A DNA stretch of 64,000 nt from Candidatus Makana argininalis (GTDB lineage Bacteria > Pseudomonadota > Gammaproteobacteria > Enterobacterales > Enterobacteriaceae): the NCBI GenBank assembly GCA_044442785.1, contig JBISJT010000001.1, positions 48,831 to 112,830 of the forward strand, given 5' to 3'. Below the pieces are notes generated by a model. That model was not told the DNA's origin. It saw only the letters and a program-made list of their open reading frames with translations, and searched no databases. Shown here piece by piece: positions 12,593-44,525 of this stretch (position 1 is its first letter; every line of letters starts with the position of its first letter). The translations under genes and the position numbers were made by a program.

Positions 12593-13243
12593 TCAATTAA
12601 TAGGTGTTTTTATAATTTTTTTTAAAATAAAATTAGTTTTAGAAAAATGTTTACAACCTAAAAATCCATAATGATATGATAATGGACTTGGATGATAAGT
12701 TTTTAAAATAAAATGTTTATTAGAATTTATAAATTTAATTTTTTTTTGAGCATAATTACCCCATAATAAAAAAATTACTTCTTTTAAGTGATCGTTGATT
12801 ATTTGAATAACTAAATCTGTAAATTTTTCCCAACCTATATTTGCATGTGAATTTGGTTTTTTATGTTCAACTGTTAAAATAGAATTTAATAAAAATACAC
12901 CTTGATCTGACCAGCTTTTCAAAAATCCATGTTTAGGTATAACAAAATTACTAATATCGTTATTTAATTCTTTATAAATATTTTTTCATGAAGGAGGTAT
13001 TTTGATACCTTTATTAACAGAAAAAGCTAAACCATTAGCTTGATTAAAATCACAATATGGATCCTGTCCTATTATAACTACTTTTATATTTTTAAATTTA
13101 GTAAATTTAAAAACATTAAATACTTCATTTGAATTTGGATGTATTATTTTACCATATGATCTTTTTTTATTAATAAAATCAATCATTTTTTTAAAAAAAA
13201 TCATTTTTTTAACATCAAATAAAACATCAGACCATGTATTCAT
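12593..13243 (-). pseudogene. ung: uracil-DNA glycosylase, single in-frame TGA (12986-12988) in an otherwise continuous frame
   Basis: The two track ORFs (12986..13243 and 12593..12922) are in the same frame. The 63 nt between them read KNIYKELNNDISNFVIPKHGF, versus E. coli [21 protein letters not shown]. The GQDPY and HPSPLS motifs are present. Confidence 0.75.
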
Positions 13244-23999: not shown

Positions 24000-24481
24000 A
24001 TGAAAAAAAAAAAAAAAATAATTTAAGCATAATAACAAAAAATAAAAAAGTATATTTTAAATATAAAATTGAAAAAGAAATAGAAGGTTCTTTGTCTTTA
24101 AAAGGATGGGAAGTAAAATCAATTAAATCTGGTAAAATTGATATTAGTAATAGTTATATTTCTATTAATAATAATGAAGCTTATCTTATTGGTTCTGTAT
24201 TTCAACCTTTAAGTAATGTTTCTTTAATTAAAAAAGAAGACTATAAAAGAAATAAAAAAGTTTTATTACATAAATTTGAAATAAATAAACTTTTATTTAA
24301 AATTAAAAAAGAAAATTGTACTATAATTGCATTATATTTATATTGGAAAAGATCAATTGTTAAAATTAAAATTGGAATTGCTAAAGGAAAAAAAAAATAT
24401 GAAAAAAAAAACCATATTAAAAAAAGAGAATGGAAAATTAATCAGTCTAGAATAATTAAAATTAAAAAAAAATATAATTGA
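24000..24481 (+). CDS. smpB: SsrA-binding protein SmpB; the only ATG is out of frame by one A within an A16 run
   Basis: The track ORF (24092..) lacks about 30 N-terminal residues. The same frame stays open upstream and reads NNLSIITKNKKVYFKYKIEKEIEGSLSLKGWEVKS, versus E. coli [30 protein letters not shown]. ATG 24000 plus A16 (24003-24018) would be in frame with 17 A. The gene is adjacent to ssrA. Confidence 0.8.
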
Positions 24482-24512: not shown

Positions 24513-24908
24513 GGGGCTGATTATTGGATTCGACGAAATTTTATATTTTTTAATTTGCATGTCGAGAGATAAAGTAACTCGTTAAAACTAATTAAAATAA
24601 ATGCAAAAGATAAATTCCAAGAATATGTTGCGTTAGCGGCTTAATTCAGAAAATAAAAACTGAATATTCCCTCTTTATTAATTTTATCTCTTAAATATAA
24701 TAAAAGAGGTCATTGATAAGAGATATTACTTGTTTTTTTAATATTTTTTTATATTCTCAAGATAAAAGTATTTTTTCAAAAATATAAATTCTTATAACCT
24801 GTGTATGTCCTTATTGTAAGATATTTTTTAAAAAAAAAGACATTACTAAACATGTAGATATTAAAACAAAATAAATTTCGGACGCGGGTTCAACTCCCGC
24901 CAGCTCCA
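24513..24908 (+). ncRNA. ssrA: tmRNA (SsrA)
   Basis: 5' GGGGCTGATTATTGGATTCGAC and 3' GGACGCGGGTTCAACTCCCGCCAGCTCCA match E. coli tmRNA ends. The internal tag ORF GCA AAA GAT AAA TTC CAA GAA TAT GTT GCG TTA GCG GCT TAA (24603-24644) encodes AKDKFQEYVALAA. Confidence 0.9.
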
Positions 24909-24938
24909 AAAAATATTTATTAATTATTTTTTAAAAAA

Positions 24939-37407: not shown

Positions 37408-37529
37408 TTAATTCCATTTTAAATTATTAAAATTAAAATAATTTATTAATATATAATAAATATTAAAATAATTTTATTTATTATATATTAATAAATTATT
37501 TTAATTTTAATAATTTAAAATGGAATTAA
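37408..37529. repeat. 122-bp inverted repeat (perfect 55-bp arms, 12-nt loop) immediately upstream of and overlapping the recA 5' end
   Basis: 37408-37462 pairs with 37529-37475 base for base. The right arm contains ATGGAATTAA (the first ATG of the recA ORF), and the left arm contains its mirror image. Confidence 0.9.
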
Positions 37530-38527
37530 TAATGATTGAAGATAATGAAAAAACAAAATCTTTAAAAAAAGTGTTAGATCAAATAGAAAAACAATTTGGA
37601 AAAGGTTCAATAATGAGATTAGGAGAAGATCGTTCTATGGATGTTGAAACAATTTCAACAGGATCTCTTTCTTTAGATATTGCACTAGGATCAGGAGGTC
37701 TTCCTTTAGGTAGAATTGTTGAAATATATGGACCAGAATCATCTGGCAAAACAACTTTGACATTACAAATTATAGCAACATTTCAAAAAAAAAATAAAAT
37801 TTGTGCTTTTATCGATGCAGAACATGCTCTAGATCCAATATATGCTAAACAAGTTGGTGTTGATATTGATAATCTTCTTTGTTCTCAACCTGATAATGGA
37901 GAACAAGCTTTAGAAATTTGTGATTCTTTAACAAAGTCTGGTGCAGTAGATTTAATAGTTGTAGATTCTGTTGCAGCTCTTACACCAAAAGCAGAAATTG
38001 ATGGAGAGATAGGAGATTCACATATGGGTTTGACTGCTAGAATGATGAGCCAAGCTATGAGAAAATTATCTGTAAATTTAAAAAATTCGAATACTTTATT
38101 AATATTTATAAATCAAATACGTATGAAAATAGGTATAACATATGGAAATCCAGAGACAACAACAGGAGGTAATGCACTTAAATTTTATTCATCAGTGAGA
38201 TTGGATATTAGACGTATAGGATATATTAAAAAAGATGATTTAATAATAGGCAATGATACTAGAGTTAAAGTAATTAAAAATAAAATATCTGTTCCTTTTA
38301 AACAAGCAGAATTTCAAATTATATATGGTAATGGTATTAATGTTATTAATGAACTTATAAATATTAGTTTAAACTATAATTTAATTAAAAGATCTGGATC
38401 TTGGTATAGTTATAATGGTAAAAAAATAGGACAAGGTAAATTAAATGTTGAGAAATTTTTAAAATATAAACCAGAAATATATAAAAAAATATACAATAAA
38501 ATAAGAACATTAATTTTTAAAAAATAA
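37520..38527 (+). CDS. recA: recombinase RecA
   Basis: Very high similarity to E. coli RecA through the core ([70 protein letters not shown]). The second ATG at 37532 (MIEDNEK, versus MAIDENK) is the likelier true start. Confidence 0.95.
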
Positions 38528-38637: not shown

Positions 38638-39975
38638 ATGACAAATAGTAGTTATAACATACGTAAAAAATTTATTAATTTTTTTAAAATTAAAAATCAT
38701 AAAGTAATTAAAGGAAGTTCGCTTTTAATAAATAATGATAAATCAATTATGTTTACAAATTCAGGAATGAATCAATTTAAAAATATTTTTTTAAATTCAA
38801 ATAATTTTCCTTATAAAAGAGTAGTAACATCTCAAAATTGTGTTAGAGCAGGTGGCAAACATAATGATTTAGAAAATGTAGGTTATACATCTCATCATCA
38901 TACTTTTTTTGAAATGCTCGGTAATTTTAGTTTTAATGATTATTTTAAAAAAGAAGCAATTTTGTTTGCATGGGAGTTATTAACAGATAAAAATTGGTTT
39001 AATATACCTAAAAATAAACTTATAGTTACTTATTATTATAAAGATCATGAAACATATAAAATATGGTTAAATGAAATAAAATTATCAAAAAATAATATAA
39101 TTGCAATTGGAGATAATAATATAGGTAAAAATATTTCTGATAATTTTTGGCAAATGGGGGAAACAGGGCCATGTGGACCATGTTCAGAAATATTTTATGA
39201 CAGGGGTAAAAATATTGATGGTAATAAACCTGGAAATAAAAAAATAACAGGTAATAGATATATTGAAATATGGAATTTAGTTTTTATACAATTTAATAAA
39301 AAATATAATGGAGATTTAATAAAATTAGATAAACCTTATGTTGATACAGGAATGGGTCTTGAAAGAATTTCTTCGGTACTACAAAATGTTGATTCAAATT
39401 TTAAAATTGATATTTTTAAAAAACTTATATTATCAATATCTAATATACTTGATATTAAAAATATTAGTAACAAATCTTTATTTGTTATATCAGATCATAT
39501 TAGATCTTGTTTTTTTTTAATAAATGATGGTTTAACCCCTTCAAATGAAGGTAAAGGTTATGTTCTTAGACGTATCATAAGAAGAGCTATAACACATGGT
39601 AAAATTTTAGGCAGTAAAAAACCATTTTTATATAAAATAATATCACATATATTTTATATAATGAAAATCAAATCAAGTAAAATAATTACAAATAAAAATA
39701 AAATTATAGATATTATCTTATCAGAAGAGAAACAATTTGAAAAAACTATAAATATAGGTTTAAATATATTAAAAAAAAAAATAAATAATATTAAATCTAA
39801 TTTTTTAGATGGTAATACTGTTTTTAAACTTTACGATACTTATGGATTTCCAATAGACTTAATAAGAGATGTATGTAAAGAAAAAAAAATAGATATTGAT
39901 GAAAATATTTTTAATAAAAAAATGAATGAACAAAAAAAAAGATCAATTAAAAAAAGTTGTTTTGCAAAAAAATAA
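38638..39975 (+). CDS. alaS: alanine--tRNA ligase, N-terminal aminoacylation/tRNA-recognition domains only (445 aa; editing and C-Ala domains absent)
   Basis: Aligns with roughly the first 460 residues of E. coli AlaRS (FTNSGMNQFK, RAGGKHNDLENVG, WQMGETGPCGPCSEIFYD, GMGLERI, LYDTYGFPIDL). TAA at 39973-39975 is followed by 275 nt of AT-only spacer and then tRNA-Ser. Confidence 0.9.
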   Translation: MTNSSYNIRKKFINFFKIKNHKVIKGSSLLINNDKSIMFTNSGMNQFKNIFLNSNNFPYKRVVTSQNCVRAGGKHNDLENVGYTSHHHTFFEMLGNFSFNDYFKKEAILFAWELLTDKNWFNIPKNKLIVTYYYKDHETYKIWLNEIKLSKNNIIAIGDNNIGKNISDNFWQMGETGPCGPCSEIFYDRGKNIDGNKPGNKKITGNRYIEIWNLVFIQFNKKYNGDLIKLDKPYVDTGMGLERISSVLQNVDSNFKIDIFKKLILSISNILDIKNISNKSLFVISDHIRSCFFLINDGLTPSNEGKGYVLRRIIRRAITHGKILGSKKPFLYKIISHIFYIMKIKSSKIITNKNKIIDIILSEEKQFEKTINIGLNILKKKINNIKSNFLDGNTVFKLYDTYGFPIDLIRDVCKEKKIDIDENIFNKKMNEQKKRSIKKSCFAKK

Positions 39976-40200
39976 ATTTATTTAATAAAATAAAATATCA
40001 AAATATTTAATATATTCAAAAATATTAAAATATTTAAAAAAAATATATTAAATAATTTTTTATTAAAATAATTTAAAATATTTAAATTTTTAAAATAAAT
40101 TAAAACAAAACTTATTATATTCATTAAATATTAAATTAAATGTAATATTTTTAAAAAAAATAATTTTGTATTTTTAAAAATAAATATTAAGTTTATTACA

Positions 40201-40228
40201 TTGACAATTAATATAATAATTTTATTAT
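40201..40228 (+). promoter_or_regulatory. sigma70-like promoter candidate for tRNA-Ser/tRNA-Arg (TTGACA-16 nt-TATTAT)
   Basis: Consensus TTGACA at 40201-40206, a 16-nt spacer, then TATTAT at 40223-40228, about 22 nt upstream of the tRNA-Ser 5' end. Confidence 0.4.
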
Positions 40229-40250
40229 ATTATAAATATAAATAATTAAA

Positions 40251-40340
40251 GGTGAGATGGCTGAGAGGTTTAAGGCTCTCCTTTGCTAATGGAGTGTACA
40301 GTTATAATCTGTATCGAGGGTTCAAATCCCTCTCTCACCT
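40251..40340 (+). tRNA. serV: tRNA-Ser (GCU)
   Basis: GGTGAGATGGCTGAGAGGTTTAAGGCTCTCCTTTGCTAATGGAG + long variable arm + GAGGGTTCAAATCCCTCTCTCACC resembles E. coli serV. It follows alaS, as in E. coli. Confidence 0.9.
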
Positions 40341-40350
40341 AAATTTAAAT

Positions 40351-40424
40351 GCACCCGTAGCTCATTTGGATAGAGCACTCGGCTACGAACCGAGAGGTAA
40401 TAGGTTCAAATCCTTTCGGGTGCG
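40351..40424 (+). tRNA. argV: tRNA-Arg (ACG)
   Basis: GCACCCGTAGCTCATTTGGATAGAGCACTCGGCTACGAACCGAGAGGTAATAGGTTCAAATCCTTTCGGGTGCG resembles the E. coli argV family. Confidence 0.9.
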
Positions 40425-40521
40425 TTAATTATGTTTAAAAAATTCACTAAACAATATAATTTAAGAAATTAAAATAAATATATTTTATATTCTTTAAATA
40501 AATATAAAATTTTGGAAATTT

Positions 40522-41772
40522 ATGTTAAAAAATAAAATAAATTTTTTAAGTTATGATAAAAAAATTTGGAATGCAATTAAAAAAGAAAAAAAAAGACAGG
40601 AAAATAACATACAACTTATTGCTTCTGAAAATTATACAAGTTATAGAGTAATGTATGCACAAGGATCATGTTTAACTAATAAATATGCAGAAGGGTATCC
40701 TGGTAAACGTTATTATAGTGGATGTGAAAATGTAGACTTTATAGAACAACTAGCAATTAATAGAGCTAAAAAATTATTTTCTGCTGACTATGCAAATGTC
40801 CAACCTCATTCTGGTTCTCAAGCTAATTTTGCTGTATATGCAGCTTTATTGAAACCAGGAGATACAATTATCGGAATGAAGGTTTCAAGTGGAGGACATA
40901 TAACACATGGTTCTTCAATTAATTTATCAGGAAAACTGTATAAAGTAATAAATTACGGATTAAATGATAAAGAAAAAATCAATTATTCAGAATTATATTT
41001 AATATCTAAAATTTATAAACCAAAAATGATTATAGGTGGTTTTTCTTCATATTCAAGAATTATTGATTGGAAAAAAATGCGTAAAATTGCTGATGAATTT
41101 GGTTGTTATTTATTAGCAGATATTTCACATGTATCTGGATTAATTGCAGCTGGTTTATACCCTAATCCAATTAAATATAGTCATATTGTAACTACAACAA
41201 CCCATAAAACATTATCTGGTCCTAGAGGAGGTATGATTTTAGCTAAAAATGGCAGCAAAAATATGTATAAAAAATTAAATAATGCTGTATTTCCATGTAC
41301 TCAAGGAGGTCCATTAATGCATGTTATAGCTGCTAAAGCAATAGCTTTAAAAGAAGCCATGAATATAAAGTTCATTAAATATCAAAAACAAGTTATTCAA
41401 AATTCTAAATCTATGGTATCAATATTTTTATTAAATAAATTTAGAATTGTTTCTGGTGGAACAGATACTCATTTATTTTTATTAGATTTAACAAATAAAA
41501 AAATTACAGGTAAAAAAGCTAGTAGTATTTTAAGTTTAGCAAATATTATTGTAAATAAAAATTTAATTCCAAATGATTTATTAAAACCTTATTATACATC
41601 TGGTATTCGTATTGGAACTGCTGCTATTACAAAAAGAGGATTTAAAGAATATCAAGTTAAAAAAATTTCTCAATGGATATGTAATATACTGAATGATATA
41701 AATAATAAATTATTAATTAAATTAATTAAAAAAAAAGTTATTAATTTATGTTATCAATTTCCTATATATTAG
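40522..41772 (+). CDS. glyA: serine hydroxymethyltransferase
   Basis: 416 aa (E. coli 417). Contains [23 protein letters not shown] and [14 protein letters not shown]. Confidence 0.95.
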
Positions 41773-43388: not shown

Positions 43389-44525
43389 ATGTTATTAAAT
43401 AAAAAAAAAGTAATAGTAGGAATGTCTGGAGGAGTTGATTCTTCTGTTTCCGCTTTTCTTCTAAAAAAAAAAGGATATTTAGTAGAAGGTTTGTTTATGA
43501 AAAATTGGTATGGAGATAATAATGAAAATTATTGTAATACTTATAAAGATTTATCAGATGTAAAACATGTATGTTGTCAACTTAAAATAAAATTACATAC
43601 TGCTAATTTTTCTTGTTATTATTGGAATAATGTTTTTATTAAATTCATAAAATTATATAATAATGGAATTACCCCAAATCCAGATATTTTGTGTAACAAA
43701 GAAATAAAATTTAATATTTTTTTAAAATTTGCAATAAAAAAATTAGGAGCTGATTTTATAGCTACAGGTCATTATGTAAGAAAATATATTAATAATAATA
43801 ATATTTATTTATTAAAAGGTAAAGATGAAAAGAAAGATCAAAGTTATTTTTTATATACTATAGGAAATAAAATTAATTATTGTTTATTCCCTTTAGGTTA
43901 TTTTAATAAAAAAAAAATTAGAAAAATAGCCCAAAAATTAGGTTTAATAAATTCACATAAAAAAGATTCCACAGGGATTTGTTTTATAGGTAAAAGAAAA
44001 TTTAGCAAGTTTATAAGTAAATATTTATGTAATAAACCTGGATTAATTATTTCAGATAAAAATAAAAAATTAGGAATGCATAATGGATTAATTTACTATA
44101 CATTAGGTCAAAGAAAAGGAATTGGAATTGGAGGTGTAAAAAATCTTAATCAAAACCCTTGGTATGTAATAGAAAAAAATATTAAAAATAATAATCTTAT
44201 TGTTTCTCAAAAAAAAAATCATCCAAAAATAATGTCTATTGGAATTATAGTTAAAAATATACATTGGGTAAATAAAAAAGAAATTAAAAATTTTTTTTTT
44301 TGTAAAGTAAAAATAAGATATCGTCAAAAAGATATATCTTGTTTTGTAAAAAAAAAAAATGAAAAAAAATTAAATGTAATATTTGATTACCCAATATGAG
44401 CTGTAACACCAGGACAATCTGCTGTTTTTTATTTATCTGATATATGTTTAGGTGGTGGTATTATTAAAAATATTATCACTTTATCAAGTTATAATAATTT
44501 GATTGTTAAAAAATATTTTAAATGA
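43389..44525 (+). pseudogene. mnmA: tRNA 2-thiouridine(34) synthase MnmA with one in-frame TGA (44397-44399); the conserved C-terminus continues in the same frame
   Basis: 336 aa match E. coli MnmA throughout (VIVGMSGGVDSSVSA, NPDILCN.EIKF, DQSYFLY, DSTGICFIG). After the TGA the same frame reads [22 protein letters not shown], versus E. coli [22 protein letters not shown]. Confidence 0.8.

Follow-up and report, generated by a model that had tools for sequence, protein, structure and literature searches.

Alanyl-tRNA synthetase (AlaRS) is a textbook example of a synthetase with redundant systems that safeguard its proofreading, and its editing and tRNA-binding parts are generally regarded as nearly indispensable. 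The alaS gene of Candidatus Makana argininalis encodes only 445 amino acids, and raises the question of whether a bacterium can live with an AlaRS reduced to its aminoacylation half or has the missing functions supplied in some other way. The gene lies in a 64,000-nucleotide stretch of contig JBISJT010000001.1 (positions 48,831 to 112,830 of the forward strand), the whole of which was analysed and is referred to here as the window. Makana is a Morganella-like co-symbiont of Hawaiian Pariaconus psyllids, where it lives beside Carsonella, and the main text of its description mentions neither alaS nor the aminoacyl-tRNA synthetases (PMC11425488). In mice a mild defect of AlaRS editing is lethal to neurons, and in E. 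coli the proteome is derailed when editing is lost (PMC6918089). Our analysis favours, with a probability of roughly 0.75, a working monomeric mini-AlaRS without editing in cis, the errors of which would be tolerated through a low alanine content, protein quality control and weak selection.

What remains of AlaRS in Makana

The alaS open reading frame (ORF) is located at 38638..39975 on the forward strand and contains 445 codons, from an ATG start to a TAA stop at 39973-39975. Its assignment draws on the ORF call, profile matches, alignment with the E. coli protein and a structure model. BLASTP against the 876-residue AlaRS of E. coli K-12 gave a single ungapped alignment of residues 1-442 with residues 1-442 at 53% identity, which places the C-terminal end of the Makana protein at about E. 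coli residue 445. An earlier, sequence-only reading of this DNA had described the two proteins as collinear, as the alignment confirms, but its estimate of E. coli residues 460-465 for the end point was too high. The Pfam family tRNA-synt_2c (PF01411) matched residues 7-439 over positions 1-431 of its 552-position profile (E = 2.8e-163), and the alaS equivalog of NCBIfam (TIGR00344) was matched over positions 1-428 of 847 with a score of 534.5 bits (cut-off 457). The protein gave no Pfam match to the editing domain tRNA_SAD (PF07973), which carries the HxxxH and CxxxH zinc motifs, or to C-Ala (PF02272), which consists of oligomerisation helices and a DHHA1-like globular part that binds the tRNA elbow.

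What is left comprises a class II catalytic core, roughly residues 1-240 (38638..39357, +), and a helical tRNA-recognition domain, roughly residues 241-441 (39358..39960, +). The core is delimited by the beta core of an AlphaFold2 model, which runs to residue 240 (a boundary taken from the secondary structure of the model), and by a fold match to PDB entry 3HXU, and the second domain by the E. coli alignment and by helices at residues 241-439 of the model. Positions 3-439 of the 441-residue 3HXU chain were matched by the Makana protein with E = 1e-164, and the model (mean predicted local distance difference test score 82) gave a TM-score to 3HXU of 0.84-0.85 over 438 columns. Profiles, E. coli alignment and the 3HXU match together bear out the view that alaS has been reduced to an aminoacylation and tRNA-recognition module. 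In bacterial AlaRS the G3:U70 identity pair is read by N303 and D400 (PMC10036535); both are kept in the alignment, as are all five AlaRS-specific pocket residues (R70, W171, N213, D236 and G238, with Met as residue 1). No second Makana alaS was present among matches to the N-terminal domain in a protein search.

Deletion and conservation of alaS in the Makana lineage

The ancestral-type gene order seen in E. coli is recA-recX-alaS-csrA-serV-argV. Makana retains recA-alaS-serV-argV, and tblastn found no remnant of recX or csrA at the locus, in agreement with what had been read from the sequence. Upstream is recA (37520..38527, +; recognised from its ORF, from RecA Pfam domains on the sister orthologues and from ancestral synteny), and downstream are the called genes for tRNA-Ser(GCU) (serV, 40250..40341, +) and tRNA-Arg(ACG) (argV, 40350..40425, +), followed by glyA (40522..41772, +; an ORF with sister orthologues). 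About 430 alaS codons and csrA are replaced by an AT-rich non-coding spacer of 274 nt (39976..40249) in a window of about 19% G+C. Residues 440-876 of E. coli AlaRS were used as a tblastn query with relaxed settings and filters off, and no match to the editing domain or C-Ala better than E = 2 was obtained anywhere in the window or in the corresponding 20 kb of each of three sister genomes, with no detectable remnant in the spacer. The 3' half of alaS, encoding the beta-barrel linker, the editing domain and C-Ala, was thus lost together with csrA by deletion and not by frameshift, as the sequence-only reading had proposed.

The window AlaRS is 86-89% identical to proteins annotated as 'Candidatus Makana argininalis' and to that of one 'Enterobacterales bacterium' assembly, on single contigs of 277-287 kb. 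Three further Makana genomes, assembled independently and covered over about 20 kb each (L001-L003), have alaS genes of 445, 445 and 443 codons with TAA at the same place, the order recA-alaS-serV-argV-glyA is common to all, and the alaS-serV spacer measures 350, 675 and 686 nt. The longer spacers (675 nt in L003, 686 nt in L002) are likewise without a remnant of the editing domain or C-Ala detectable by tblastn. The truncation is therefore lineage-wide as far as sampled (four of four Makana genomes examined), and between genomes with differences at 22-34% of their synonymous sites the stop has shifted by no more than two codons. Since the short gene, its stop position and the gene order are the same in all four, the deletion is older than the split of the sampled Makana lineages.

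The four spacers cannot be aligned with one another apart from a ACATTGACAATTAAT box about 45 nt 5' of serV, which is present in all four genomes and forms the -35 part of an 11/12 sigma-70 match (TTGACA, 16 nt, TATTAT; 40201..40228, +, within a conserved stretch at 40195-40228). Judged from its sequence and position, this element is probably the promoter of the serV-argV tRNA operon.

The sister genomes also bear on whether the short gene is an artefact, that is, a misassembly, a sequencing error giving a false stop, or a recoded stop that is read through. The stop does lie in homopolymer-rich AT sequence of an error-prone kind (AAAAAAATAA), but four independent assemblies agree on the gene and its junction, the 274 nt before tRNA-Ser leave no room for about 430 codons, and tblastn found no AlaRS similarity in any downstream frame. 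Recoding was rejected, as the alaS stop is TAA and not TGA. We give an artefact next to no probability.

Pairwise ratios of non-synonymous to synonymous substitution (dN/dS) for alaS among the four Makana genomes were 0.17-0.31, at a synonymous divergence (dS) of 0.22-0.34 (Nei-Gojobori); the control genes recA and glyA gave 0.12-0.19 and 0.15-0.24, respectively, by the same method. These values show that the remaining alaS is under purifying selection about as strong as that on its neighbours. The age of the truncation and the selection on the gene exclude an assembly artefact and also speak against a pseudogene, in which case the ORF would be a decaying relic and tRNA-Ala would be charged by an enzyme imported from the host or the co-symbiont. 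There is some ground for suspecting a relic, as half of the gene length has gone, the E. coli enzyme is crippled by deletion of C-Ala (PMC8887476), other genes of the window are decaying (mnmA, for example, has an in-frame stop), and the co-resident Carsonella is without many aminoacyl-tRNA synthetase genes, protein sharing having been discussed for psyllid symbionts. Against it stand an ORF that has stayed open and kept its stop position across this synonymous divergence, dN/dS values like those of recA and glyA, and the retention of every catalytic or identity residue tested, and we consider it very unlikely. A functional enzyme is the better reading of these data: because of the low dN/dS and the retention of the catalytic residues and of N303 and D400, the Makana AlaRS is probably still active, as had been suspected of the stump from its sequence.

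Short alaS genes in other insect symbionts

The AlaRS editing domain had been described in the sequence-only reading as otherwise almost universally conserved. Its loss is not unique to Makana, and recurs in Nardonella and in at least three other symbiont lineages. The length of alaS was surveyed in one genome per species, at 80 loci among the 600 pattern matches listed. The ORF was closed within the locus in 73 of the 80, and 68 of those 73 encode 864-951 amino acids; among the matches listed, two tiny symbionts were short, namely the Nardonella of Pachyrhynchus infernalis and the gamma symbiont of Trioza apicalis. In this Nardonella (AP018160, 226 kb; L080:4001-5323) alaS has 440 codons and stands in the order recA-alaS-serV-argV, with only 20 nt between its stop and the tRNA-Ser gene.

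Further cases came from a protein search with the Nardonella enzyme as query. Three more Nardonella-type AlaRS (P0122, P0130 and P0155) have 440-444 amino acids and are encoded on contigs of 220-231 kb, and the mutual AlaRS identity of four Nardonella lineages (P0121, P0122, P0130 and P0155) is only 48-55%, so that the short form must be ancient in Nardonella. An AT-rich lineage of 21% G+C, represented by the Logan assemblies SRR25867663, SRR25867660 and SRR25867618, encodes an AlaRS of 445-450 amino acids (short alaS at L085:4001-5353, L086:439-1791 and L087:4001-5338), keeps csrA 220-350 nt 3' of alaS, and has an alaS dN/dS of 0.22. Nor is the loss confined to the tiniest genomes, because the 1.15-Mb chromosome OZ193413.1 carries an alaS for 450 amino acids (L088:4001-5353) that ends in TGA and whose product is 75% identical to that of E. 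coli. The forms of 440-450 amino acids end at positions equivalent to E. coli residues of about 441-458, where the tRNA-recognition domain gives way to the linker. The short AlaRS of the other symbionts are 49-60% identical to that of Makana and are labelled in the databases as plain alanine--tRNA ligase, and we found no published description of a truncated AlaRS from Nardonella or other symbionts in the literature. That the same short form has persisted in four Nardonella lineages of deep divergence, and in two lineages besides, is a further point against a decaying relic.

The gamma symbiont of Trioza apicalis (CP066222, 253 kb; L044:3980-6114) is a related psyllid symbiont with an in-frame TAA at alaS codon 561, just before the HxxxH motif, which leaves 560 amino acids. 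The sequence 3' of this codon is riddled with stops and is still recognisable as an editing domain, including its HxxxH and CxxxH regions ('CICTHA*RTGDI' against 'CGGTHASRTGDIG' in E. coli). The Trioza symbiont offers a snapshot of the decay that has been completed in Makana, with the editing domain decaying in place.

Differences in gene neighbours, stop codons and end points show several independent truncation events, and it is on these differences that independence rests for the lineages other than Makana and Nardonella. In a neighbour-joining tree all AT-rich sequences cluster together, probably through compositional attraction, so the tree is silent on whether Makana and Nardonella share an origin of the short form. 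A single convergent change was found: residues 39-44 of Makana AlaS (window 38758-38775) read FTNSGM in place of the near-invariant FTNAGM, and this A42S substitution occurs in four of the five mini-AlaRS lineages (Makana, Nardonella, the AT-rich lineage that keeps csrA and the Trioza symbiont). It was rejected as a compensating substitution, since Ser is also found here in full-length AlaRS that bear an editing domain (P0144 and P0170), and it is probably AT-driven and neutral.

Probable function without editing, and known systems compared

On our reading the 445-residue protein would be the working AlaRS of the cell. It should act as a monomer, because the oligomerisation helices sit in C-Ala, and it would recognise tRNA-Ala through the acceptor stem only, with G3:U70 read by N303 and D400 and with tRNA binding probably weaker than in the full-length enzyme. 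G3:U70 substrates are charged by the Aquifex N453 fragment and by the Tupanvirus mini-AlaRS (PMC10036535). D236 and G238 make activation of Ser and Gly unavoidable (PMC7373986), and as both are unchanged in Makana, Ser-tRNA-Ala as well as Gly-tRNA-Ala should be formed at the intact active site and could not be hydrolysed by the enzyme. The symbiont would then live with uncorrected Ala-to-Ser and Ala-to-Gly errors. These may be bearable in a proteome with alanine at about 3% of residues, where GroEL/ES, GrpE, HslUV and the transfer-messenger RNA (tmRNA)/SmpB system are kept and selection on a vertically inherited 277-kb symbiont would be weak. Alanine makes up 3.07% of the 16,881 residues in the window genes, compared with about 10% in the E. 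coli genes used for comparison, and AlaRS itself has 6 alanines in Makana and 37 in E. coli. Protein quality control is well represented within the same 64 kb, by groEL/ES, grpE and hslUV as well as by a tmRNA gene (24513-24911; tag peptide AKDKFQEYVALAA) adjoining smpB (24092-24481).

Either tolerance of mistranslation or an editor acting in trans had been predicted in the sequence-only reading. The same errors might be cleared in trans if editing survives elsewhere in the genome or comes from the host. Candidates would be a free-standing C-terminal half of alaS, an AlaX-type protein, a ProXp-ST-type deacylase, an AlaX homologue of the host or, for Gly-tRNA-Ala, DTD. AlaX proteins are known from every domain of life (PMC7373986; PMC5409826), and the AlaRS of Nanoarchaeum equitans is split (PMC10036535). 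Of the window ORFs of at least 90 amino acids, 49 were taken as genes; Pfam was used to scan 21 of these and NCBIfam to scan 20, while eight more (rpsA, glyS, glyQ, rplS, rpsP, glyA, pgi and groEL) were recognised because their sister-genome orthologues have Pfam calls. The 49 are housekeeping genes such as aspS, gltX, glyQS, a class IIb synthetase, gyrA, dnaE, ptsI, groEL/ES, grpE, hslUV, smpB, uvrD and tkt, and none contains a tRNA_SAD, DHHA1, DTD or YbaK domain. Nor did tblastn detect anything resembling an editing domain in the window or in L001-L003. Two indirect arguments also oppose editing in trans. AlaX homologues are absent from E. coli, which belongs to the same order (PMC6918089), so one would have to be gained horizontally by a 277-kb genome, and in the Trioza symbiont the editing domain decays in place, with no relocation. 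We think a split or trans system unlikely, and were one found, it would be a new split arrangement for bacteria.

Several observations nevertheless count against a mini-AlaRS that works without any editor. The search for an editor spans 64 kb of about 277 kb, plus about 20 kb of each of the three sister genomes, and a relocated editing domain, AlaX, DTD or ProXp-type factor may lie in the remaining 70% or so. No tRNA-Ala gene is among the window's tRNA and tmRNA genes, 10 in all, or in L001-L003, so that G3:U70 in the Makana tRNA is presumed. The dN/dS of alaS is slightly above the values for recA and glyA. Finally, E. coli AlaRS binds tRNA mainly through C-Ala, and when this domain is deleted the activity of the enzyme drops sharply and its tRNA affinity falls by up to 13-fold (PMC8887476; PMC10036535).

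Possible erosion and varying gene content were also noticed at other genes. In the window mnmA gene (tRNA 2-thiouridylase, 43389-44501) codon 337 (44397-44399) is an in-frame stop, and the conserved TPGQSAVFY is encoded beyond it; the mnmA orthologue is frameshifted in L002 and intact in L001 and L003, which points to ongoing erosion of a gene for decoding accuracy or to sequencing error. In L002 the frameshifted mnmA is adjoined by an RNase T gene of 181 amino acids (L002:15158-17093) for which tblastn found no counterpart in the window or in L001 and L003; Makana strains thus vary in gene content. A 109-residue ORF with a TTG start (12593-12922, -) covers no more than positions 44-140 of the uracil-DNA glycosylase profile (141 positions), and may be a truncated ung or an ung remnant.

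A broader claim can be made from the recurrence of the short gene: that bacteria live for millions of years without AlaRS editing, C-Ala or a trans editor, and that the minimal enzyme has been reached repeatedly in unrelated insect symbionts by cuts within about 15 residues of position 441, where biochemists had placed the end of their fragment. The lineages concerned are Makana, Nardonella, the AT-rich lineage that keeps csrA and the one with the 1.15-Mb chromosome, with the Trioza symbiont part of the way there. We give this claim even odds. In the argument of Kelly et al. (2019), the errors of AlaRS cost too much for nature to tolerate, and a loss of proofreading is unlikely to be seen. If true, the claim would run counter to the opinion that proofreading by AlaRS, in contrast to that by LeuRS, ThrRS or PheRS, is too costly to be lost in nature, and would supply natural enzymes for testing it. 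Editing loss in host-restricted microbes is itself a known theme; the short alaS is apparently undescribed for Makana, and its recurrence apparently under-appreciated. The mini-AlaRS genes of Makana and the other symbionts are of bacterial type, are under selection and are the only alaS seen in these cellular genomes. They offer material for testing how much Ala-to-Ser and Ala-to-Gly mistranslation is bearable, whether it is buffered by low alanine and a high chaperone load, and how tRNA is bound by a bacterial AlaRS that lacks C-Ala. The mini-AlaRS may also serve to indicate that genome reduction has reached a late stage.

Among the closest counterparts are laboratory fragments of the E. coli enzyme, of which 461N is reportedly the classical one, described by Jasin, Regan and Schimmel in 1983. 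The Makana protein shares with 461N and with AlaRS(1-441) (3HXU and related structures) its domain content, a nearly identical end point, the catalytic residues and N303/D400. The sequence-only reading had compared it with a minimal fragment of about 461 residues; it is in fact 16 residues shorter than 461N and equals the crystallised AlaRS(1-441). Whereas those fragments are constructs made from a full-length gene, Makana has a natural gene that is fixed, selected and the only alaS seen.

The Tupanvirus mini-AlaRS (TuAlaRS) is, like that of Makana, a natural AlaRS consisting of the aminoacylation domain only, and was called the only one of its kind by its authors (PMC10036535). It charges G3:U70 tRNA-Ala and can replace the yeast AlaRS (Antika et al. 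2023, PMC10036535). It is, however, viral and of eukaryotic descent, works beside the full AlaRS of the host and has lost the N/D pair, whereas the Makana enzyme is bacterial, keeps N303 and D400 and is the product of the only alaS seen.

Proofreading has also been lost from other synthetases of host-restricted organisms with reduced genomes, such as the LeuRS, ThrRS and PheRS of Mycoplasma and the enzymes of microsporidia, and a 'statistical proteome' has been inferred for reduced-genome organisms without proofreading (PMC7373986). The characterised losses are of LeuRS, ThrRS and PheRS, whereas the Makana case concerns AlaRS. A survey by Melnikov et al. in PNAS in 2018 reportedly covered AlaRS as well.

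Among cellular systems, the short AlaRS of Nardonella stands in the same context, recA-alaS-serV-argV, in different hosts and lineages. The split AlaRS of N. equitans, with its alpha and beta parts, resembles that of Makana in that its N-terminal part forms a polypeptide of its own and in that the genome is very small (PMC10036535). There, the C-terminal half is kept as a second gene, which restores activity and G3:U70 specificity, in contrast to Makana, where no second piece was found in the regions searched. The two also differ in where the protein is cut: inside the tRNA-recognition domain in N. equitans, and after the complete domain in Makana.

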